A stretch of 48,952 nt of DNA from a virus. Location of the stretch: the IMG/VR virus record IMGVR_UViG_3300006217_000086; one strand, given 5' to 3'. Below are positions 1 through 48,952 of the stretch, piece after piece (position 1 is the first letter of the stretch; each line of letters begins with the position of its first letter). A program made the translations under genes and the position numbers. Under the pieces are notes generated by a model that did not search any database, had not been told where the DNA came from, and saw only the letters and a list, made by a program, of their open reading frames with translations.

Positions 1-77
1 CGCTCCGGCTGCTCCGGCAGCCCGGCCGCTTTGCTGAACCGGCGGTACTGCTCGTTCAGCCGCCGCAGGCGGACGGC
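1..77. repeat. 77-bp terminal overlap, identical to 48876..48952 (circular closure, assembler-style overlap)
   Basis: Direct comparison: cgctccggctgctccggcagcccggccgctttgctgaaccggcggtactgctcgttcagccgccgcaggcggacggc occurs at both ends. Confidence 0.95.
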
Positions 78-308
78 GGCCGCCTGGGCCTCCTCCGGCA
101 GGCCCGCGGCCGCAAAGGCCCCCTGCCGCCGCCGTTGGCGGCGGATGCTCCGCTCCAGGCTCCGCTGCATCTGGGACGCCTGGTAGTCGTCGTACTCCCG
201 GCCCTCAAATTCGATTTTCGGCCGGTTCTCCGGCTTCATGGCCTCCAGCTCCGCGTCGGTGCAGGTCCGCTCCGATACGCCCTCAATAAATGGCCAGAAG
301 CTGTGGCG
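1..308 (-). CDS. MuF-family (SPP1 gp7-like) minor capsid / polymorphic-toxin protein, segment downstream of the in-frame TAG. It continues across the circular junction into 48152..48952.
   Basis: The frame opens right after TAG (311..309): RHSFWPFIEGVSERTCTDAELEAMKPENRPKIEFEGREYDDYQASQMQRSLERSIRRQ.... Codon phase at 77 equals that at 48952. A possible restart ATG lies at 239. Confidence 0.7.
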
Positions 309-386
309 CTATCGGCAGTTCGCCCCTCCTATGCCAGTTACGGAACCATATCCGCACGTCTTTTCAAAATCGGGATAACTGTTCAA
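309..386 (-). CDS. MuF gene fragment 2: (TTG)NSYPDFEKTCGYGSVTGIGGANCR followed by in-frame TAG
   Basis: Contains the conserved YPDF...GYG...G.NCR block of the Mu F domain. SD-like GGGGGTGAT lies 7 nt upstream of TTG at 386. The stop TAG at 311..309 interrupts the NCRH motif. Confidence 0.5.
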   Translation of the reverse strand: MNSYPDFEKTCGYGSVTGIGGANCR

Positions 387-426
387 AATATCACCCCCTA
401 TAACAATCTTCGAAATTGCCAGCAAC

Positions 427-589
427 GATTTCGTAGGGGCGGTTATCAACCGCCCGTTCCCCCAGGCTTCCCGGCCGCAACGGCCAGGCCCTGTCCCCCC
501 AGATTGCCCCTTCCCCCGGAAGCGCCGCTCCTGTGTGGCTCTGCGGGCGGCTGATAGCCGCCCCTACGGGGTGCTGCGCGGGTTGATGA
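427..589 (-). repeat. 163-bp structured GC/G-tract element, copy 1 (inside the interrupted MuF gene)
   Basis: Homologous to 2244..2406. The first 32 nt are identical, and there is a conserved distal block ggctctgcgggcgg..gccgcccctacggggtgc. Terminal 24-nt inverted repeat: cgtaggggcggttatcaaccgccc / gggcggctgatagccgcccctacg. Confidence 0.85.
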
Positions 590-612
590 TTGCCATAAAT
601 TGCCTGTCCTGT

Positions 613-1434
613 TCATGGATGCCGCTCCGGTCCTGCGCCCCTGCCGCCGCGTTTCCACCGGTACACCTTCCCCTGCCATTTCGCATGGTTCTCCCACCCG
701 TTTGGCCCGTCAATATTCCGCGCCCCCAGGTGGGCGGTCACCTCCACCAGGTCCGTCTGGAGGAACTCCATGCTCTGCTCCCGGTACCGCTGGTTCAGCT
801 GGTTCACGCCGGTCATGACAGCCCTTCTCACGGCGACGTCCACACTGTCTACGTGCCCGCTCTCATAGCTGACTGTTTTCAATCCGCTGTCCGCCAGCTG
901 CCGCACGGCGCCGGCAATGGCCCGGTGATAGCCAAATGCCCCGGACTGTATTTTCAGCACCGCGGAATCCAGGGCCCACTGATACGCCTTTCCCGGCTCC
1001 AGCAGCACCCTTCCCCGGCCCTGGTGCACCAGGAAGCCCATGGATTGGGTGATGTTTTGCAGCTGGCCCCGGGTCTGCTGGTAAATGGCCCAGACCGTCT
1101 CGTGGTCCACAAGCCGCTCTGGGGCCGTGAGGCCCGCCAGGCCGGCGAGGCCGCCGTAATACTGCCGGTTCCGCCGGACCACGTCCTCCAGCAGAGCGGC
1201 CAGAGTCTCCTCACCCGCGCCGCTGGTTTTGGCAATGGCCTTTTGGATGTCTGCCAGAGGGAGGCCCAGACCCCGTAGGGCCCGGAGGTTCTGGACCGTC
1301 ACCTCGTTCAGGGCCCCCGCCGCCCGCAGCCGGGTACAGATGCCCTCCAGCAGTTCCTGCTCCAGGCCCCGGTACTGCTCCGCCAGCGCCTCCGGCAGGG
1401 CGTCCAGAACCGTGGGAGTGAAGGGATAGGTCAC
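613..1434 (-). CDS. MuF-family minor capsid (head morphogenesis) protein, N-terminal fragment
   Basis: GTG start with AAAGGAG SD. The N-terminus (LPEALAEQYRGLEQELLEGICTRL) and ...VEVTAHLGARN..HAKWQGKVY are typical of SPP1 gp7/Mu F proteins. It stops at 613 before the YPDF/NCRH block. Confidence 0.8.
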   Translation of the reverse strand: MTYPFTPTVLDALPEALAEQYRGLEQELLEGICTRLRAAGALNEVTVQNLRALRGLGLPLADIQKAIAKTSGAGEETLAALLEDVVRRNRQYYGGLAGLAGLTAPERLVDHETVWAIYQQTRGQLQNITQSMGFLVHQGRGRVLLEPGKAYQWALDSAVLKIQSGAFGYHRAIAGAVRQLADSGLKTVSYESGHVDSVDVAVRRAVMTGVNQLNQRYREQSMEFLQTDLVEVTAHLGARNIDGPNGWENHAKWQGKVYRWKRGGRGAGPERHP

Positions 1435-1446
1435 GGGGCTTCTCCT

Positions 1447-2196
1447 TTACCGCACGCCGCCATCCCCCAGGAACAAAAGCCGGAAGGTCTCCCGGCCCTT
1501 GGGGGTCACCAGGGTCTGGGTGCCGCTCCATTGGGTCTTCTCGTTGAAGCACTCCTTGACCTCAAACAAGCCGCCTGCCACATGGGGATGATAGGGAAGC
1601 AGCTTCCCCTTCTGGTCCCGATAGATGTACTTGTGCCGCAGCAGCTCCGAAACAAAGGCCTTTGGGCCAATCTCCAGCTGCTTGGCGGTCTCCCGGAAAT
1701 TGGTCAGCAGGTTCCGTTCCACCAGCTGGTCAAAGTAGTCCGCCTTTGGGCGCATCATCTGGTTGTCCACCGTCAGGGCGGAAATGCGGGCCTCCCGGTC
1801 CGCGATGGTCTTCTGGGCCAGCAGCAGGGCCTTTGCCATCAGCTCCTCCGGCGTCATGCGGTCCTGCCCCGCGATGTAGCCGCCACTGCGCCGGATGGAG
1901 GGCAGGACTTCATCAAAAATCCAGCTCTCGAACTCAGCGGCCCCCGGAAGGTCCGACCGGGCCGCAAGGCGATAGATGTCCCCCTCGGGGATGAAATTCA
2001 TTTCCTGTTCTCTGCCCAGTTTATCGGTGAGGTGGCGTTTCACCACCCCACGGCAATGCTGCTTGATGGCATTAGTAGTGTCCTTGTAGCCCAGCGCCGC
2101 CGCCACGTCCTTGCCGCAGAACAGCGTCACGCCGTTCTCCGTGATGGTCCGCACCTCTCCAAACTTTGGGCTCCCAAAGATTTGCAATTCATTCAT
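1447..2196 (-). CDS. Bro-N / KilA-C (ANT) antirepressor-like protein
   Basis: N-terminus MNELQIFGSPKFGEVRTITENGVTLFCGKDVAAALGY is a Bro-N pattern. The C-terminus matches the phage antirepressor KilAC pattern (ADYFDQLV...FRETAK). AAAGGAG SD. Confidence 0.8.
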   Translation of the reverse strand: MNELQIFGSPKFGEVRTITENGVTLFCGKDVAAALGYKDTTNAIKQHCRGVVKRHLTDKLGREQEMNFIPEGDIYRLAARSDLPGAAEFESWIFDEVLPSIRRSGGYIAGQDRMTPEELMAKALLLAQKTIADREARISALTVDNQMMRPKADYFDQLVERNLLTNFRETAKQLEIGPKAFVSELLRHKYIYRDQKGKLLPYHPHVAGGLFEVKECFNEKTQWSGTQTLVTPKGRETFRLLFLGDGGVR

Positions 2197-2243: not shown

Positions 2244-2406
2244 GATTTCGTAGGGGCGGTTATCAACCGCCCGTTGGCAACAGGCCCGTCCGCAACAGAC
2301 CGGGCCCCGTCCCCCCAAGATCGCCCGTTCCCCCGGACGCACCGCGCCCTTGCGGCTCTGCGGGCGGCAGATTGCCGCCCCTACGGGGTGCCGCATGGGT
2401 TGAGGA
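2244..2406 (-). repeat. 163-bp structured GC/G-tract element, copy 2 (between a portal-coupled small ORF and the bro gene)
   Basis: Same length and same terminal hairpins as 427..589. The centre has diverged, but the G-tracts are retained. Confidence 0.85.
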
Positions 2407-2550
2407 CTGCGGCAGAATGGCTCTCCGGACCCGCAGCAGCTTCACCGTGCCGCCGGGCCCGGGAATCAGCTCCACTCGGTCCCCCCGGGAGAGCACCGCC
2501 TCCGCCGCCGCAATCTGCCCCGCATCCAGCCGTACCAGGTCTCTGCTCAT
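2263..2550 (-). CDS. Small ORF translationally coupled to the portal gene (ATGA overlap). The first ~47 aa are possibly SpoVT/AbrB-like, and the ORF then runs into repeat copy 2.
   Basis: MSRDLVRLDAGQIAAAEAVLSRGDRVELIPGPGGTVKLLRVRR... The reading frame enters the element at about 2406 and terminates inside or after it at 2263. Confidence 0.35.
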   Translation of the reverse strand: MSRDLVRLDAGQIAAAEAVLSRGDRVELIPGPGGTVKLLRVRRAILPQSSTHAAPRRGGNLPPAEPQGRGASGGTGDLGGTGPGLLRTGLLPTGG

Positions 2551-4008: not shown

Positions 4009-5607
4009 TCACTGCCCGCGCCGCTTCCAGATGGTCTCTGTGGCGTAGCGCACGGCGTCGATGTGATGGTTGTTCCGGTCCGGATAGCCGCTGAGAACGG
4101 CCCCGTCCCGGGTTCGTTCATACTCGTACTCCGCAAACTCCCGGTACGTGTCCGGGCACCGCTCCGGGTCAATGACAATCTTCACCAGGGACTGCAGCCA
4201 CTTCATGGAGTAGTCCACGCTGCCCGGCCCCTTCTCCGCCCCCAGGCACCGGAGGCCGAAGGTCCGGTAATCGGCGATGCTCTTGGGCTCCGCGCTGTCG
4301 GCGGTGATGAGGTCCTCGCCGGTGAGGCCCCGCTTCCGCAGAAGCTCCGCCGTCTCCCGGTTGCCCGTTTTCAGGGCGGTCAGCTCGTCGAAGATGTACA
4401 GCGTCCGCCGGGCGGCGTCGTAGTGCACCCGGTTAAAGGCCCAGGGGTCCGGATAAAAGCCCCAGTCCACGCCGCAGAGGACCCGGTCAAAGGCCGCAAT
4501 CCGCTCCGCCGGAATGGGCTCCGGGGCCAGGTTCTCAAAGACCATGCCGCCGCTGCCGTTGGGGATGCCCAGGTACTCGTGCTCATAGGCGGCGGGGTTC
4601 CTCTGCCGCAGGTCCTCCGCCTCGTCCAGAAAGGCCCGCCCCAGCCACTCCGGCGGCACGCTGCGGTAGTCGGAGTGGGTGACCCGGCGGCTTTCCCTGG
4701 GCAGGGCACAGGCGCGGTTGGCCCAGTTGCTTTTTGTCTTGGGGGGATTGAAGCTTTTGAAGATATAGGCCGCGTCGCCGCCGCGGACGGCGGACTGCTG
4801 AATGCTGCGGCACTCCTCGTCGCCGGCAAACTGGTCCAGCTCCTCAAACCAGAGGATGCCGATGTAGCCAAAGGGCGGCTTAATGGATTTCAGCTTCAGG
4901 GGGTCATCGGCGCCGCGGAAATAGATTTTCTGCCCGGTGGAGCGGCAGGTGATTTCCAGGGGAGACTTCGTGTGGCTGAAGTCCCCGCCCAGCCCCAGGG
5001 CCTCAATGGCCCACCGCACCTGGGTGAACACGGAGTCCCGCAGGGTGTTGCTCACCTTGCGGCAGCAGAGGGCGTGCATCTCCGGGTGGGTCCGCAGCAG
5101 GGAGACCACCTCCAGGGAGACGAAGGAGGACTTGGCCGAGCCGCGGCCGCCCTTTTCCACATACTCCGTGTGCCGCCCGGCCAGGATGTCCAGATGGTCC
5201 GCCGCAAAGGCCGGGGCGATCAGCCGGGCGGGAAGCTCAAAGGCGGCATGGCCGCTGTCGGCCGGGGCGCTGTCCTTCGGTTCCCAGGCGCCCAGGTGCC
5301 GGCCCAGCAGCTCCAGGGCTTTTAGCTTGTTGGCGTACTTCAGCGCGCTGTCCGGGGCGTCGGAGGCGGCCATGTCCGTGATTTCCCGAAGCCGGTCAAT
5401 CACATAGTCCTGCGTGACCTCCGTGCGCTGCCGGCGGGCCTGCATGGCGGCCTGGACCGCTTGGGAAACACAGGTTTTCCCAAGCAGCGCCGGGCCGGTC
5501 CGGTCCGCTGTTTTCGCGCTGTATCCTGCTCTCCGGGCCGCGGCGGTGGCATTCAAATCCACCAGGTATTCTTGTACAAACCGCTCCTGCTTCGGTGTTA
5601 ATGCCAT
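4009..5607 (-). CDS. Terminase: small-subunit (Terminase_2-like) N-terminus fused in frame to a PBSX/XtmB-type large subunit
   Basis: N-terminus MALTPKQERFVQEYLVDLNATAAARRAGYSAKTA is a TerS pattern. From about aa 140, ...YVEKGGRGSAKSSF (Walker A) and the remainder match TerL. There is no stop between the two parts. Confidence 0.8.
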   Translation of the reverse strand: MALTPKQERFVQEYLVDLNATAAARRAGYSAKTADRTGPALLGKTCVSQAVQAAMQARRQRTEVTQDYVIDRLREITDMAASDAPDSALKYANKLKALELLGRHLGAWEPKDSAPADSGHAAFELPARLIAPAFAADHLDILAGRHTEYVEKGGRGSAKSSFVSLEVVSLLRTHPEMHALCCRKVSNTLRDSVFTQVRWAIEALGLGGDFSHTKSPLEITCRSTGQKIYFRGADDPLKLKSIKPPFGYIGILWFEELDQFAGDEECRSIQQSAVRGGDAAYIFKSFNPPKTKSNWANRACALPRESRRVTHSDYRSVPPEWLGRAFLDEAEDLRQRNPAAYEHEYLGIPNGSGGMVFENLAPEPIPAERIAAFDRVLCGVDWGFYPDPWAFNRVHYDAARRTLYIFDELTALKTGNRETAELLRKRGLTGEDLITADSAEPKSIADYRTFGLRCLGAEKGPGSVDYSMKWLQSLVKIVIDPERCPDTYREFAEYEYERTRDGAVLSGYPDRNNHHIDAVRYATETIWKRRGQ

Positions 5608-5637
5608 ACCACCACCTCTCAGTCAAAGTCAAATAGC

Positions 5638-5709
5638 GCGGGCGGCTGGGAATCGAACCCGCCGCGGGCGGTTTTGGAGACCGCCCCGCCGCCTTGGTAC
5701 ATGCGCCCG
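5638..5709 (-). tRNA. tRNA-like element (anticodon loop CU-CCA-AA would be Trp); possibly a pseudo-tRNA
   Basis: Minus-sense sequence: cgggcgc..gcggt-ctccaaa-accgc..gcggg-ttcgatt-cccag-ccgcccg. The anticodon arm, GGTTCGATTCC T-loop and 6/7 acceptor pairing are good. The D-stem is poor and the T-stem has 2 mismatches. Confidence 0.35.
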
Positions 5710-6380: not shown

Positions 6381-6738
6381 GGCGTCTCACCCCCTCCCAC
6401 TTCTCCAGCCCGTCCAGCACGTCGCACAATCTCAGGGCGTTCTCCGGCGACGGGTCCTTCCGGCAGGCGGCCTTTGCCGCCTCGGTGTCCCGGGTCACCC
6501 GCCAGTGATGCTCCGTCAGCCGGTCCGCAAACACCCGCCGCTTTCCGGCTGCCTGCGCCTGACGCACAATCCGCCGTTTCTCCCCGGCGGCGGCCTCTCT
6601 GGAGAGGACCTTGCCGCAATAATCCCGGTACACCTGCCGCAGCGCCAGATAGGCAGACTGCTCTTCCGCCGGCAGCCCCTCCGGCAGGGGCTCCCCCCGC
6701 ATGGCCGCCCGCTCCCAGGGAAACGCCAGCTCAGCCAT
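6313..6738 (-). CDS. Hypothetical protein (141 aa)
   Basis: ORF in operon phase with its neighbours. Its 3' 68 nt overlap the next ORF, so the true end is uncertain. Confidence 0.5.
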   Translation of the reverse strand: MAELAFPWERAAMRGEPLPEGLPAEEQSAYLALRQVYRDYCGKVLSREAAAGEKRRIVRQAQAAGKRRVFADRLTEHHWRVTRDTEAAKAACRKDPSPENALRLCDVLDGLEKWEGVRRHDKSGSGQDSGPKDHPGRALDV

Positions 6739-7126
6739 GGGGCTCGCCTCCCAGATACCACGCCAGCAGGTCCACCGCCGCCTGCCAGCCGTGGCAGACC
6801 CGCCAAAGGCAGCCCTGGCCGCGCAGCCATTCCCCCCACCATTCCTGTTCCGGGCTGGTATGGCCCCGCTCGGTTTTCATCTCGATGTACAGCCCGTGGT
6901 ACCCTCGCCGAGGCACCGGCAGACACAAATCCGGCACGCCCGCCTTCACCCCCTGCTCCTTCAGGTGCCGGGCCTCTACGGCGTCCCGCCTGCCGCCGTT
7001 GGGGATGTGATAAAGCCCCGCCAGCTCCGGATACTCCCCCCGGTGAAGCCGGGACCAGGCGATCACATTGGCCTGGTGCTGCGCCTCGCTCTTGGGATTG
7101 GCCAGAATCCGAATGCTTGTTTTCAT
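6731..7126 (-). CDS. VRR-NUC domain nuclease
   Basis: SEAQHQANVIAW...YHIPNGGRRD...GVKAGVPDLCL...GLYIEMKTERG..SPEQEWW is the VRR-NUC pattern. ATGA overlap with the helicase stop. Confidence 0.8.
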   Translation of the reverse strand: MKTSIRILANPKSEAQHQANVIAWSRLHRGEYPELAGLYHIPNGGRRDAVEARHLKEQGVKAGVPDLCLPVPRRGYHGLYIEMKTERGHTSPEQEWWGEWLRGQGCLWRVCHGWQAAVDLLAWYLGGEPHG

Positions 7127-15345: not shown

Positions 15346-15491
15346 GACTCCGCCTCCTCGCCCGCCGGCGGGAAGAACCACACCGCCAGCGCCTGCCGGC
15401 CGTTTTGGAGGGCCTGCGCCCGGTCCGGGGTGTAGAGGTCCACCGCAAGGCCGCGGACGCCGGTGTCCGCGGCGTGGTAGCTCTTAATCAT
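15336..15491 (-). CDS. Small hypothetical protein (51 aa)
   Basis: GGAGGGGG SD followed by ATG at 15491. Overlaps both neighbouring genes by a few nt. Confidence 0.35.
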   Translation of the reverse strand: MIKSYHAADTGVRGLAVDLYTPDRAQALQNGRQALAVWFFPPAGEEAESCT

Positions 15492-15996
15492 AGCCGTGCC
15501 CCCTCCTTCCAAGGTCACGATGTGTCTTTGCACAATGTTCAGATTTGGAAAGCCATTGGCAATTTTCTGGAGTATAATCTCCATCGTTGTCAATTCTGTC
15601 AAGCTGCATCCCGGCCTGATAGCCATGCTCATAGGACCATTTTGCAAAAGCAGGGAAATCATGGACCCACTCTTCACAGATGGAAACCCCCTTCCCGCCA
15701 TGTCCGGCGTATCCAGTGGCGTTGGGATTCAGGCACCTGGACTTCATGGAGTGCCAACTTCCAAAAAGCGGCGTCCGGCTCATCCCATGCGTCGTCATAC
15801 GCTTCGCGGTCATCGTTCTCACAAGGCATCCGCAACTCTTTGTTCGGCCAGTCAAAAAGCTCGAAGCACGAATAATCGCTTCTTTTCCACACTCACACTG
15901 GAAAAGCCAATACTTATCCTTGCTTTGGCTGTGGTCGAATCGGACCGCTGTGAGCATATTCTTTTTCATACCGGGGGAAACACCAGGCCGTGCCAC
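15484..15996 (-). CDS. HNH-type (HNH_3-like) endonuclease-family protein
   Basis: CECG...SCGC zinc motif, THGMSRTPLFGSWHSMKSRC, and LDRIDNDGDYTPENCQW, typical of phage HNH_3 proteins. Confidence 0.65.
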   Translation of the reverse strand: MARPGVSPGMKKNMLTAVRFDHSQSKDKYWLFQCECGKEAIIRASSFLTGRTKSCGCLVRTMTAKRMTTHGMSRTPLFGSWHSMKSRCLNPNATGYAGHGGKGVSICEEWVHDFPAFAKWSYEHGYQAGMQLDRIDNDGDYTPENCQWLSKSEHCAKTHRDLGRRGHGYD

Positions 15997-16737
15997 TTAT
16001 TCGACCTCCATCCAGTAAACCGATGCACTACGAACTCCTTGTGCCAGCGCCTCTGCATGGGTAGAGACGCAAAGGTCAATGTGATTCCCACGGATGGACG
16101 TTCCTACATCATCCGCCCGGTAACAATGGATTTCCCCATCGCCATAGTCAACCAGGACTGTGCTGCCAAGGGGAATCACCTCCGGGTCCACCGCAACGCT
16201 GACATATGGGAGCGCCGGAACACCGCGGGCCGTCATTCCGTCTGTTTTTCCGCAGCACACAAGACAGCAGTCATAGTGTGTGACCGTGCAGAGGCCCAGC
16301 TCCCGCGCCCAGGGGAAGCGCCGGGCCGCCTGGCTGTACTCCGGGGGAACCGCTTCCTCCGCGGCGCGGGGGTGGGGGGATAGGCGGTCTTGGGGGGACG
16401 GGCGATTGATCATCGCCCCTACGGGGGCCTCTGCGGCTGCCGAACCGGCCTGTCCGTCAAGGTTGCCGGCCTTTGCCCGGGGCCAGACCGCCGCCAGGGC
16501 CAGGACCTCCACGGCGATGGCCGCCGTCAGGGCCCCGATGGCCGCCGTCTTCCAGACCGTCCGGGCCCGCTCCGCCTCCGCCAGACGCCGCCGCGCCTCC
16601 CGGCGCTCCCGGAGCGCCCGGTCCAGGGCCTCCTGCCGCAGCTCCTGCCTCTTGGCCTCCAGGGCCGCCAGCGCCTCCGCCTGGGCGCTCTGGGCCGCCT
16701 CCAGACGCCGCAGGCGCTTGGATTGCTTGCCGCTCAT
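15997..16737 (-). CDS. 3D-domain (MltA/RlpA-like) protein with an N-terminal coiled coil and a TM segment
   Basis: C-terminus THYDCCLVCCGKTDGMTARGVP...VAVDPEVIPLGS...YRADDVGTSIRGNHIDLCVSTHAEA is the 3D-domain pattern. Confidence 0.75.
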   Translation of the reverse strand: MSGKQSKRLRRLEAAQSAQAEALAALEAKRQELRQEALDRALRERREARRRLAEAERARTVWKTAAIGALTAAIAVEVLALAAVWPRAKAGNLDGQAGSAAAEAPVGAMINRPSPQDRLSPHPRAAEEAVPPEYSQAARRFPWARELGLCTVTHYDCCLVCCGKTDGMTARGVPALPYVSVAVDPEVIPLGSTVLVDYGDGEIHCYRADDVGTSIRGNHIDLCVSTHAEALAQGVRSASVYWMEVE

Positions 16738-17504
16738 ACGCTCCCCCCTTCCTTCGGCACCCAATGGCCGGACTGCAGGTTTTCCGGCTTTTGCGCGGCG
16801 GATACGATTGCGCAGTCCGGCCACAGCGCTTTCTTGACGCGCATTCCGGCAAAGACGCAGAACCCATCGCCTGCCTTGATGCCGCGGCCTGCCTCGATGC
16901 CCCAGCCTGCCTCGATGCCCCAGCCTGCCTCGATGCCAAGGCCTGCCTCGATGCCAAGGCCTGCCTCGATGTCGCAGCCTGCCTTGATGCCCCAGCCTGC
17001 CTCGATGCCGCAGCCTGCCTCGATGCCATCGCCTGCCTCGATGCCAAGGCCTGCCTCGATGCCAAGGCCTGCCTCGATGCCGCAGCCTGCCTCGATGCCC
17101 CAGCCTGCCTCGATGCCATAGACTGCCTTGATGCCATCGCCTGCCTCGATGCCGCAGCCTGCCTTGATGCCCCAGCCTGCCTCGATGCCAAGGCCTGCCT
17201 CGATGCCGCGGCCTGCCCGAATATATCTGGCCCTGACACCTCCATCAAATCGGAGGCTCCCGGCAAACAGAATCGTCCGGTCCGGCGCGTCAAGTTCCTC
17301 GCCAAAAACCCGCTCCTCATTCGTCGGGCCCAGATGCTCCAGCAGCCAGCTGCCGAAATCCAGGCGGTCCTCCTCCGCGCAGCGGTCCAGCACCTCCTGA
17401 TAGCCGCCGCCGTCCGGAAACACCCGCTGAAATTCCCTCTGCCCTTCCCGGCAGGCGCCCAGCTCCCGCAAATACGGAAGCGTAATCTTAAAATCCCCTG
17501 TCAT
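16734..17504 (-). CDS. Hexapeptide-repeat protein, about 20 x (G-I-E/K-A-G-x), predicted beta-helix
   Basis: GIEAGLGIEAGWGIKAGCGIEAGD... encoded by an 18-bp tandem DNA repeat. Unique N-terminal domain MTGDFKITLPYLRELGACREGQ. Confidence 0.7.
   Translation of the reverse strand: MTGDFKITLPYLRELGACREGQREFQRVFPDGGGYQEVLDRCAEEDRLDFGSWLLEHLGPTNEERVFGEELDAPDRTILFAGSLRFDGGVRARYIRAGRGIEAGLGIEAGWGIKAGCGIEAGDGIKAVYGIEAGWGIEAGCGIEAGLGIEAGLGIEAGDGIEAGCGIEAGWGIKAGCDIEAGLGIEAGLGIEAGWGIEAGWGIEAGRGIKAGDGFCVFAGMRVKKALWPDCAIVSAAQKPENLQSGHWVPKEGGSV
16869..17210. repeat. 19 x 18-bp tandem repeat (gcctgcctcgatgccNNN) inside the CDS
   Basis: Counted directly. Only the last 3 nt of each unit vary systematically. 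Confidence 0.95.
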
Positions 17505-48151: not shown

Positions 48152-48952
48152 TCACACCAGTCCTTTTAATGCTATTATAGCATCCTTTTCAAAGTTTGGG
48201 AATAGAATATGGAAAAGATTCAAAACATCTTTATTATTTTGGAATTGAATTCTCCCAAACTGCGCCCATGCTTCCAGCTCCAAGAAGCCTTTCGTTCTCC
48301 AATAATTCCTCGGGTGACCATAGCCATAGTCTATTTTTCCCACTGAAAATCCATTTAGAATATCGGCAATCCCACGATATTCTTCTTTGAACACCGTTCT
48401 TCCTGTCAAAGAGTTTGTTTCAAACAGATTGGGGAATTTCGACACAAGGTACTGTTTCACATCGCCTCCGCTTGCTGCATTCAGCGCCAGGTAGTCGTTC
48501 ATCAAACTTTCCGAAAATCTCTGACTGACCCGCCCGCCCACATCCATTCTGTGAAACAGCTCATGCACCAATGTGGAGGCATCCGCATTCGCTCCAATGT
48601 GGATGATATTCAGCCCGGGCCCTGGGTGGAAATACGAGCGGGCCCCGCTTTCCACAATATAATCCGCATTCCGGTACACCTTCCGCAGCGCCGCCCGCAT
48701 TTCCGGCGTGGTGCGGGCCATGCCGTCATGGAAGGACTTCCGAAGCCCTTTGGGCAGCCCGCCAAAGCCGGTCACCTTCCGCAGCTTGGCCGCGCTCTTG
48801 GCCGCTCTCCTGGCCCGGTCGCCAAGATCACTTTCTGCCGCCGCCAGAGGTCCGCCGCCCTCCAGCACCCGCAGCCGCTCCGGCTGCTCCGGCAGCCCGG
48901 CCGCTTTGCTGAACCGGCGGTACTGCTCGTTCAGCCGCCGCAGGCGGACGGC
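48152..48952 (-). CDS. MuF-family protein, C-terminal HExxH metallopeptidase-like module (continuation of 1..308 across the junction)
   Basis: ...ASTLVHELFHRMD... (HExxH) with a downstream ELEAWAQF. The 3' ~300 nt are conspicuously AT-rich relative to the rest of the gene. Confidence 0.7.
   Translation of the reverse strand, partial: AVRLRRLNEQYRRFSKAAGLPEQPERLRVLEGGGPLAAAESDLGDRARRAAKSAAKLRKVTGFGGLPKGLRKSFHDGMARTTPEMRAALRKVYRNADYIVESGARSYFHPGPGLNIIHIGANADASTLVHELFHRMDVGGRVSQRFSESLMNDYLALNAASGGDVKQYLVSKFPNLFETNSLTGRTVFKEEYRGIADILNGFSVGKIDYGYGHPRNYWRTKGFLELEAWAQFGRIQFQNNKDVLNLFHILFPNFEKDAIIALKGLV
48876..48952. repeat. Second copy of the 77-bp terminal overlap
   Basis: Identical to 1..77. Confidence 0.95.

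Follow-up and report, generated by a model that had tools for sequence, protein, structure and literature searches.

The original work on the T4 mobA/gene 60 cassette is reportedly that of Bonocora et al. 2011. In this system, the MobA element splits the T4 topoisomerase into genes 39 and 60 with the layout CTE, HNH, NTE with HomR, and a stop-led insert; the insert of 50 nucleotides (nt) protects the genome that carries it from cleavage by MobA and is skipped by translating ribosomes, and some MobA lineages have lost or replaced the endonuclease and kept the split (bioRxiv 10.1101/2022.08.31.505936, Manning & Atkins). The gene 60 bypass was long seen as a one-off, and it has recently been placed in a mobile HNH cassette that is limited to one topoisomerase gene (bioRxiv 10.1101/2022.08.31.505936). 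In the nrdA gene of Aeromonas phage Aeh1, which is split by the free-standing homing endonuclease gene mobE, the insertion gives the upstream half a stop and the downstream half a ribosome-binding site and a start codon, and the halves are presumed to assemble into a working protein. Here we describe a Phage_min_cap2 (MuF-like) head gene that is cut twice in the IMG/VR virus record IMGVR_UViG_3300006217_000086, a stretch of 48,952 nt that was analysed as a whole (hereafter the window). As judged by comparison with related phages, the interval 384-640 is likely to be the gap between the cistrons of a gene cut by a homing-endonuclease-type cassette, with a REPIN-like element now sitting in the slot. 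The main interest lies in the scar of the cassette, above all in a recurrent TAG-led mini-insert at 311-306, and not in the REPIN-like element. Full-text literature searches returned no description of split MuF genes or of TAG-led mini-inserts.

The pieces of the gene are as follows, in the order of its coding strand.

613..1434, minus strand: piece 1, with 260 conserved codons up to a W (657-655), a 13-codon non-homologous tail KRGGRGAGPERHP (654-616) and the stop TGA (615-613)
390..398, minus strand: Shine-Dalgarno (SD) sequence GGGGGTGAT, which serves the restart codon TTG (386-384)
312..386, minus strand: piece 2, (M)NSYPDFEKTCGYGSVTGIGGANCR, 25 codons with the conserved block YPDF...GGANCR
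306..311, minus strand: mini-insert TAG CGC, 6 nt inside the invariant NCR/HSF motif, with the stop in-frame between two Arg codons
1..305, minus strand: piece 3, HSFWPFIEGVSER..., the rest of the MuF core and a C-terminal HExxH domain, running over the circular junction to 48152

The split of the MuF-like gene is real. When the pieces were compared with Pfam PF06152 (Phage_min_cap2, the MuF-like 'minor capsid protein 2'), piece 1 matched profile positions 2-245 (6.7e-47), pieces 2 and 3, translated in another frame from 383 downward, matched positions 255-364 (7.7e-29), and the profile was covered over its whole length by the pieces together. Both halves of the gene also match phrog_581 'minor head protein' in PHROGs. 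A sequence-only reading of the window had let the N-terminal open reading frame (ORF; 1434..613, minus strand) end in ...HAKWQGKVYRWKRGGRGAGPERHP* and the second block resume at 386 in a different frame; both statements are borne out, the former by the ORF translation and the latter by the PF06152 match from 383 downward. It had also placed the two blocks close together in uninterrupted homologues, and exactly 10 residues separate VYRW from YPDF in the closest full-length ones, which are 71% identical. The spacing from the W codon to the Y codon is 277 nt in the window, which gives a net insertion of ~247 nt, and it is 30-33 nt in 17 uninterrupted relatives and 42 nt in four more distant ones. 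The second lesion had gone unnoticed in that reading: block 2 stops at an in-frame TAG (311-309) that is part of a 6-nt insertion, and the window has AAC TGC CGA TAG CGC CAC at the place where homologues have AAC TGC CGN CAC (NCRH). Piece 3 is open for 342 codons. No start codon stands directly behind TAG 311-309, and gene callers start a 320-amino-acid (aa) ORF at ATG 239.

The first 77 nt of the window (1-77) are identical to its last 77 nt (48876-48952), and the window is a circular assembly representing a complete genome of ~48.9 kb. With this terminal overlap, the earlier description of an otherwise intact phage is reasonable. The split locus was 100% identical in independent assemblies (NCBI, ENA, Logan), and is therefore not an assembly artefact; some short contigs from independent assemblies cross both the element and the TAG. 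The cluster variant P0121 is the only variant of the split gene, and differs merely in the writing of the GTG start.

When we compared 40 IMG/VR relatives of piece 1 (55-71% identical), the gap proved to be a hotspot for cargo that is bounded by conserved signals. The distance from W to Y in the split relatives is 360, 609, 705, 775, 785, 837, 917, 1018, 1071 or 1686 nt, and the gap DNA is unrelated among more than 10 related phages. The N part always ends in a stop, which in the split alleles lies a few K/R-rich codons past VYRW. The second piece almost always has the form A-GG(G/T)GGTGAT, 3-5 nt, ATG or TTG, at least 2 codons, and TAY-CCN-GAY. The same restart, an SD followed by ATG or TTG at (x)xYPDF, is conserved in 10 other split alleles; two of them (L127 and L154; loci outside the window carry such L-numbers) have the identical ...GGTGATATTTTGAACAGT / ...GGTGATATTTTGAACAGTTATCC context with TTG, as in the window, and L141 restarts with ATG AAC AGT (MNSYPDF). 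The proposal of two cistrons with the SD GGGGGTGAT and TTG, which the sequence-only reading had offered as an alternative to an intron, is thus strongly supported by the conserved order of SD, spacer and start. An alignment with relatives, which the same reading had called for, sets the boundaries of the insertion: DNA homology to every relative breaks at 652-655 and resumes at 399/400, with the SD included, or at 377-385. These comparisons indicate that the split gene is a genes-in-pieces arrangement and that the gap is older than the REPIN-like element in it.

The cargo of the gap is diverse. HNH genes lie in the gap of nine alleles and occur in either orientation; they match phrog_374 in L130, L153 and L154, and the homologues in L283/L297, L286, L289, L292 and L413 were identified by tblastn. 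The gap of L123 holds a small ORF, homologous to one in the window, and an anti-repressor (ANT) gene that is 78% DNA-identical to that of the window; just 14 nt separate the two, and the element is absent there. Toxin domains are fused in-frame to piece 1 in L120/L141 (a weak CdiA_C match) and in L124 (ADPrib_exo_Tox followed by CdiA_C), and these fusions sit straight behind VYRW, inside the gap, not after a complete MuF core. The gaps of L127, L134 and L137 contain ORFs with no assigned family. Upstream of the cargo HNH of L153, an int-alpA RNA motif (RF02996, 54 bits, E=2e-8) was found at L153:1035-1100, and visibly similar sequence lies between the piece 1 stop and the HNH start in L130, L286 and L289; this int-alpA-like motif may serve as a leader to the endonuclease gene.

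MuF-fused polymorphic toxins of temperate phages were reportedly described by Jamet et al. 2017, and the MuF homologues found here likewise carry C-terminal toxin domains (Ntox50, ADPrib_exo_Tox, CdiA_C and PBECR). At its C-terminus, piece 3 (305..1 and 48875..48152 of the window, minus strand) has a domain of ~240 aa that contains the HExxH motif HELFH, and because of this motif the piece looks like a MuF-fused effector or toxin. The difference from the described toxins is that several split relatives fuse the toxin directly behind VYRW of piece 1.

The composition and the relationships of the pieces point to a cassette. First, this phage has an overall G+C of 65%, and the G+C content at third codon positions (GC3) reaches 0.83 for piece 1 and 0.90 for piece 3 but falls to 0.48 over the 25 piece 2 codons (P=1.6e-5 given the rate of the flanks), whereas the same codons in an intact high-GC homologue have a GC3 of 0.86. 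Second, piece 2 with its SD (400..309) is 79-89% DNA-identical to L127, L154 and L141, and the flanking gene parts of these loci are 65-77% identical. As far as composition and identity can tell, piece 2 is a foreign, cassette-borne replacement copy of the conserved block. Third, two IMG/VR loci, L283 and L297 (3300045988_007487 and _021482), are 99-100% identical from ~-1000 nt up to the TAG, a span that comprises the end of piece 1, the HNH gene and piece 2; both sides of it are 92-96% identical, and the step at the 3' side lies exactly at the mini-insert. We read this step as the footprint of a recent transfer of the cassette between two phages.

Based on these comparisons, we suggest that the cassette would consist of five parts: a short tail and a stop codon added behind VYRW; a slot for cargo, occupied in many relatives by an HNH endonuclease gene; an SD and start codon of its own; a replacement copy of the next ~24 codons (YPDF...GGANCR); and, at the 3' edge, a 4-10-nt insert led by an in-frame TAG within the invariant NCRHSF. 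The string TGQAIYGN in the gap of the window (612-589, minus strand, in the N frame behind the TGA) resembles the N-terminal HNH motif DRTGQRYGKL (DRTGQRYGKLTV, DKTGKKYGLLTV); as a weak hint, it may be what is left of a deleted HNH gene, or a chance resemblance. The window does have a free-standing HNH gene elsewhere:

15484..15996, minus strand: free-standing HNH gene, phrog_374 (E=4e-57), directly behind a lysin-like ORF

Its product is 35-38% identical to the gap HNHs of the relatives and belongs to the same PHROG; the gene may have a connection to the MuF locus, or none.

Stop-led inserts of 4, 6 or 10 nt were found in the NCRHSF motif in 16 distinct alleles, namely 14 distinct NCR-TAG alleles and two 10-nt alleles. 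In all of them an in-frame TAG comes first, and the search pattern for further insert alleles required TAG. The forms are listed below.

6-nt insert: CGA/CGC/CGG TAG CGN (or TGG) CAY, in 12 distinct alleles including this phage
4-nt insert: CGG TAGG CAC, in L154
10-nt insert: GCT TAGTAATGAA AAT TGC, in L130
10-nt insert: GCT TAGAAAAGAT AAC TGC, in L153

The mini-insert goes with the split. It is carried by none of the 17 unsplit loci and by 14 of the 28 split ones; the split set was partly collected by the TAG-pattern search, and when only relatives retrieved by the N part are counted, 5 of the 19 split loci have the insert. Five further insert-bearing loci are cut off upstream and have no call on their split state. 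Every allele with an HNH gene in the gap also carries the mini-insert, and the insert occurs with no HNH gene in the gap in this phage, L137, L141 and L303, the last of which has an HNH gene just upstream of the MuF gene.

The sequence behind the TAG looks maintained. Piece 3 has no interruption before its natural end in any of the 13 alleles examined, over 106-342 codons, this end being ...AGLPEQRERMKVLY or lying further on where C-terminal domains follow. Between the two loci with a 10-nt insert, L130 and L153, dN of piece 3 is 0.27 and dS 1.8 (dN/dS ~0.15), and the loci are evenly ~70% identical, the HNH gene included. Between L283 and L297, piece 3 has 17 synonymous and 1 non-synonymous codon differences. 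Eleven of the 12 six-nt alleles have an Arg codon CGN on both sides of the TAG, with synonymous variation only.

These features suggest that translation may continue at CGA-TAG-CGC (314-306) into piece 3. As the likely route, the peptidyl-tRNA(Arg) would leave CGA and re-pair on CGC, a 6-nt hop that would restore NCRHSF exactly; stop-codon read-through would be an alternative route at the TAG. For the 4- and 10-nt alleles, the ribosome would have to shift +1 at sense-UAG, with the products NCR-R-HSF, GGA-SNE-NCRH and GGA-RKD-NCRH. By analogy with T4 MobA and gene 60, the mini-insert may exist because the target site of the endonuclease is broken by it. We hold passage of the TAG into piece 3 as a tentative proposal, one that falls somewhat short of an even chance. 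In much the same degree we regard it as conceivable, and perhaps a little doubtful, that the TAG inserts (TAG+1, TAG+3 and TAG+7 nt) are a second natural family of homing-endonuclease-linked programmed recoding sites, after T4 gene 60.

Reassignment of TAG as a sense codon was considered and rejected. Read-through of TAG merges almost no ORFs of the minus strand, some relatives have TAA and TGA right behind the TAG, and the window has a normal tRNA as its sole tRNA gene:

5638-5709, minus strand: tRNA-Trp(CCA), the sole tRNA gene, just past the upstream end of the terminase large-subunit ORF (stop-to-stop 4009..5622); not a suppressor

The likeness to the MobA system extends over the whole layout. 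In both, an HNH gene splits a conserved phage gene at one fixed position, and the upstream half bears an element-encoded tail. The downstream half receives an element-encoded start and a homologous replacement, piece 2 being analogous to the MobA HomR. Right behind the replacement, a stop-led insert lies in a highly conserved motif and is present whenever the endonuclease is present. The endonuclease may later be lost or replaced while the split and the insert persist, and the L283/L297 step points to transfer as a unit. On this analogy, the window would be an endonuclease-loss derivative of a MobA-type cassette. However, the two systems differ in several respects. First, the target here is a Phage_min_cap2/MuF-like head gene and not a topoisomerase. 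Second, the carriers are gut Clostridia phages with a siphovirus-like, SPP1-type head module, in contrast to T4-like myoviruses of Proteobacteria. Third, the insert measures 4, 6 or 10 nt as opposed to 50, with no recognisable take-off stem-loop or internal SD, and translation would have to hop over 6 nt, read through the stop or shift +1; both endonuclease activity and recoding are predicted here from sequence. Finally, the HNH gene occurs in either orientation and the cargo varies, the slot of the window holding the REPIN. Compared with nrdA/mobE of Aeh1, the MuF-like gene has a third cut, the TAG mini-insert, 25 codons on, and its slot is promiscuous (HNH, ANT, toxin domains, REPIN).

The element that fills the slot in the window, its second copy and the features around them are the following.

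427..595, minus strand: element copy 1, GC-rich and REPIN-like, a ~170-nt unit 83% identical to copy 2
567..545, minus strand: 5' REP of copy 1, GTAG-GGGCGGCTATCAGCCGCCC, a palindrome
433..455, read on the plus strand: 3' REP of copy 1, GTAG-GGGCGGTTATCAACCGCCC, with an 87-nt spacer between the REPs
2244..2412, minus strand: element copy 2, in the same orientation, between the small ORF behind the portal gene and the Bro-N/ANT anti-repressor gene (2196..1447)
2263-2550, minus strand: small ORF that starts on the portal gene stop (TGATG overlap), with a weak phrog_29211 match over residues 13-44
16400..16422, minus strand: solo REP hairpin, GTAG GGGCGATGATCAATCGCCC, in-frame inside ORF 16824..15997

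It is known that REP, REPIN and BIME sequences are mobilised by RAYTs (REP-associated tyrosine transposases), as in E. coli and Pseudomonas. The structured element noticed in the sequence-only reading is real: a 140-nt core (571..432) is bounded by 25-nt inverted arms (432-456 and 544-568) that are 92% complementary, a pattern with no match in 100 shuffles. Pairing of the 5' hairpin is kept between the copies by a compensatory change (CTATCAG vs CAATCTG). The copies share their 3' 32 nt without a difference and are ~80% identical elsewhere. Copy 2 lies directly upstream of the SD and ATG of the ANT gene and is fused to the 3' end of the small ORF (start 2550), which runs through it to a TGA in the 3' REP loop and is annotated by gene callers as a 95-aa protein. 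With the four arms and the solo hairpin, the window has five GTAG-headed hairpins in total. The 23-mer of the solo hairpin is identical to the hairpin GGGCGATTGATCATCGCCCCTAC of L168. The solo REP stands in-frame (...APVGAMINRPSP...) in a linker of the ~275-aa ORF 16824..15997, whose C-terminal half resembles, by eye, a 3D-domain cell-wall hydrolase; a REP in-frame within a gene recalls the Rickettsia palindromic elements.

The arms belong to a widespread family. The pattern CGTAGGGGCGG-N7-CCGCCCG is present in 108 IMG/VR stretches (as many as 10 instances per contig) and in at least 120 GTDB genome stretches, and the carriers listed are overwhelmingly gut or rumen Clostridia (Oscillospiraceae, Acutalibacteraceae, Ruminococcus, Faecousia, Pseudoflavonifractor). 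The two free inner stem positions are complementary in 133/140 and 131/140 instances, and an inverted partner lies less than 250 nt away in 42/140. In L168, a locus of an Oscillospiraceae metagenome-assembled genome, ORF 6555-7070(-) is RAYT-like: its sole NCBIfam match is NF047646 REP_Tyr_transpos (E=8e-17, below the curated cut-off), it has a weak Pfam Y1_Tnp match, and an HUH-type motif PNHVHLLL was spotted in it by eye. This ORF is flanked on both sides by the near-identical hairpins GGGCGATTGATCATCGCCCCTAC and GGGCGATTGATAATCGCCCCTAC; a similar REP also lies within it, around L168:6754. This pairing of a RAYT-like gene with flanking REPs comes from L168, a related genome, and not from this phage. 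From the GTAG hairpins, the spread of the family and the RAYT-flanking hairpins in L168, we take the arms to be REPs of a RAYT-type system. The element thus appears to be a REPIN/BIME-like doublet that probably came from a REP/RAYT system of the Clostridia host, an ordinary selfish repeat in an unusual place.

Its similarities with described REP/REPIN systems are the GTAG head with an imperfect GC-rich palindrome, the inverted REP pair forming a long hairpin, the many copies of single REPs in genomes, the compensatory stem changes and a RAYT-like gene between the same hairpins (L168). It differs in that the hosts are Clostridia (Oscillospiraceae and relatives) and not Proteobacteria, in its 87-nt spacer, and in that the copies lie in a phage genome, within operons, one being fused to the end of an ORF. 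The literature search on the hairpin sequence found nothing relevant, and an Rfam search of REP-rich contigs gave no known RNA family for the hairpins. A diversity-generating retroelement was rejected, as the differences between the copies are not specific to A positions and include frame-breaking indels; these indels likewise led us to reject a protein-coding reading of the element. The sequence-only reading had spoken of a mobile structured element inside the gene, which is right in spirit, but the element seems to be a late passenger in a gap made earlier by another mobile element.

Taken together, the history of the locus may be drawn as follows. A low-GC HNH cassette would have invaded the gene, leaving the tail 654-616, the stop, the SD with TTG, piece 2 and TAG-CGC, and the HNH gene would then have been lost. 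A GC-rich REPIN would have entered the gap, with a second copy before ANT, a step that its composition and its family membership support. From the sequence, piece 1 would be translated to TGA 615-613, and comparison with the relatives indicates that ribosomes would restart at TTG 386 behind the SD at 398-390. The REPIN would be a passenger, transcribed as a stable hairpin and not removed.

Several observations count against this interpretation. First, the gap of the window holds no HNH gene, and it is the relatives that point to its former presence. Second, five split allele types have neither an HNH gene nor the mini-insert; because of these, the split may predate or be independent of the HNH cassette. 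Third, the hop fails for the 10-nt alleles, in which the take-off codon GCU has no matching landing codon, and L413 pairs CGG with CGT (CGG-TAG-CGT); a covariation of take-off and landing codons (CGA/CGC with CGH, CGG with NGG) held for 10 alleles and was broken by L413, and was rejected. Fourth, no conserved take-off stem-loop specific to the insert-bearing alleles was found; the only stem near the insert, GGCGG/CUGCC, is inherent to the coding sequence. Fifth, the intactness and low dN/dS of piece 3 could stem from repeated recent invasion of intact genes, and since the L283/L297 identity step shows that transfer is real, the evidence for selection on piece 3 is suggestive and not decisive. 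Finally, the 87-nt centre of the REPIN-like element, which is longer than the spacers of genomic REP doublets, was found nowhere else in IMG/VR, INPHARED phages, GTDB genomes and JGI metagenomes (exact 24-mer and two degenerate central patterns), so that the complete element is known only as two copies, both in this phage. No clear target-site duplication is common to the two: copy 1 has the nested direct repeats GGCAATTT, TGGCAAT and TGAACAG, copy 2 has a different repeat at different distances, and no consistent rule emerges.

The fifth of these points leads to the main rival, in which piece 3 is not made and looks intact since cassettes keep invading fresh genes. In its plainest form the gene would be a pseudogene: the element and the TAG insert would be unrelated lesions of a gene for a dispensable protein, and nothing would be made downstream of 613 (or 309). 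SPP1 gp7-type proteins are not known to be strictly essential, the gene has two independent-looking lesions with no start codon directly behind the TAG, and cassettes move between phages, so that intact downstream pieces could be young. On the other hand, the restart signal is conserved in 11 split alleles, and 13 TAG-bearing alleles with 25-40% protein divergence have no further stop or frameshift in their 106-342 downstream codons. The dN/dS of ~0.15, the 17 to 1 ratio of synonymous to non-synonymous differences in L283/L297 and the Arg codons kept on both sides of the TAG also speak against this reading, and the phage assembles as a complete circle that is identical in at least 8 samples. 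We consider a plain pseudogene unlikely.

A further rival concerns the element, which could be a selected cis-acting RNA (a processing site, an mRNA stabiliser or a translational coupler) placed before the C part of MuF and before ANT. Both copies do lie in the same orientation, directly behind a stop or ORF end and 40-50 nt ahead of an SD and start; the unchanged 3' 32 nt and the compensatory change in the local hairpin would also suit such a role. However, there are only two copies, no other split allele carries or needs the element, its arms belong to a genome-wide REP family with a solo arm inside an ORF, and a search of the coding strand found no promoter- or terminator-like signal. We regard a selected RNA as improbable.

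The sequence-only reading had favoured a small self-splicing group I intron, with ~235 nt removed and ...GPERH joined to NSYPDF.... Its arithmetic was correct: the removed length must equal 1 mod 3, and 618..384 is 235 nt. A length of this class is indeed available that has U ahead of the 5' site and a terminal G, the interval 384-640 folds better than its shuffles (z=-3.0), and a conserved part of a conserved gene is a typical seat of phage introns, with homing endonucleases at the site in relatives as for phage group I introns. Nevertheless, a search of the window against Rfam (gathering threshold, and E<=10 on 2.3 kb) gave no intron, ribozyme or other family, and no intron or ribozyme matched 381 nt of the interval at E<=10 with the laxest filters. 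The predicted fold is dominated by a 25-bp stem from the two inverted arms, that is, by REP hairpins, with no P3-P9 core. The hypothetical splice 618..384 would leave a linker of 15 aa compared with 10 in homologues, and since the in-frame TAG 75 nt downstream (311-309) survives, no intron removal at 384-640 yields a single ORF. The second copy of the element is intergenic; it lies outside any conserved gene core and in no split gene. The relatives carry protein-coding cargo at this site with its own stop and an SD with ATG, and thus show cistron boundaries, unlike the intron boundaries of group I introns; an Rfam search of their gaps matched no intron family. Based on these results, the intron interpretation is largely refuted, and we regard splicing here as very improbable.

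The least credible proposal is that the ribosome bypasses all of the ~230-270-nt gap, taking off at CCA-TGA 618-613 to land near 386-372: a stop does lie directly behind the last sense codon, TGAACAG is repeated directly at 615 and 385, and the base of the long hairpin would draw both sites together, but removal of 230 nt between the repeats leaves the frame unrestored (for which reason excision at the TGAACAG repeats was rejected as well), landing on CCC would replace the invariant Y, the conserved SD and start already account for expression, and the 360-1686-nt ORF-bearing gaps of relatives cannot be bypassed.

The locus appears to follow the same cassette logic as T4 gene 60 in an unrelated gene, phage type and host phylum, with a graded series of much shorter stop-led inserts. 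If the inserts are decoded through, homing elements would repeatedly use recoding for self-protection. Bypass or frameshifting would then serve homing cassettes generally as 'immunity with no protein cost', with the head genes of gut Clostridia phages as the case at hand, and the inserts would offer a simple system with many natural variants for finding the minimal sequence of hopping or of a +1 shift at a stop. Even with no recoding, a head gene that looks 'broken' in a seemingly active phage of the gut can turn out to be a conserved gene-in-pieces that gene callers mis-annotate, and its gap a hotspot for anti-repressor genes and toxin domains. RAYT-type REPs, which have been known mainly from Proteobacteria, are also plentiful in gut Clostridia and make their way into phage genomes.

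Two observations lie outside the split gene. GP20-b RNA motifs (RF03003) were found downstream of the MuF locus at L141:7571-7630, L154:2630-2693 and L124:7779-7838, a position that, going by the family name, is presumably near the scaffold gene; none reached the threshold in the window. In the window itself, the ORF at 16734-17504 (minus strand, ~256 aa) contains a long run of GIEAG/GIKAG-type pentapeptides with a tandem 15-nt periodicity, and these pentapeptide repeats create long repeat-derived ORFs in other frames and on the other strand.

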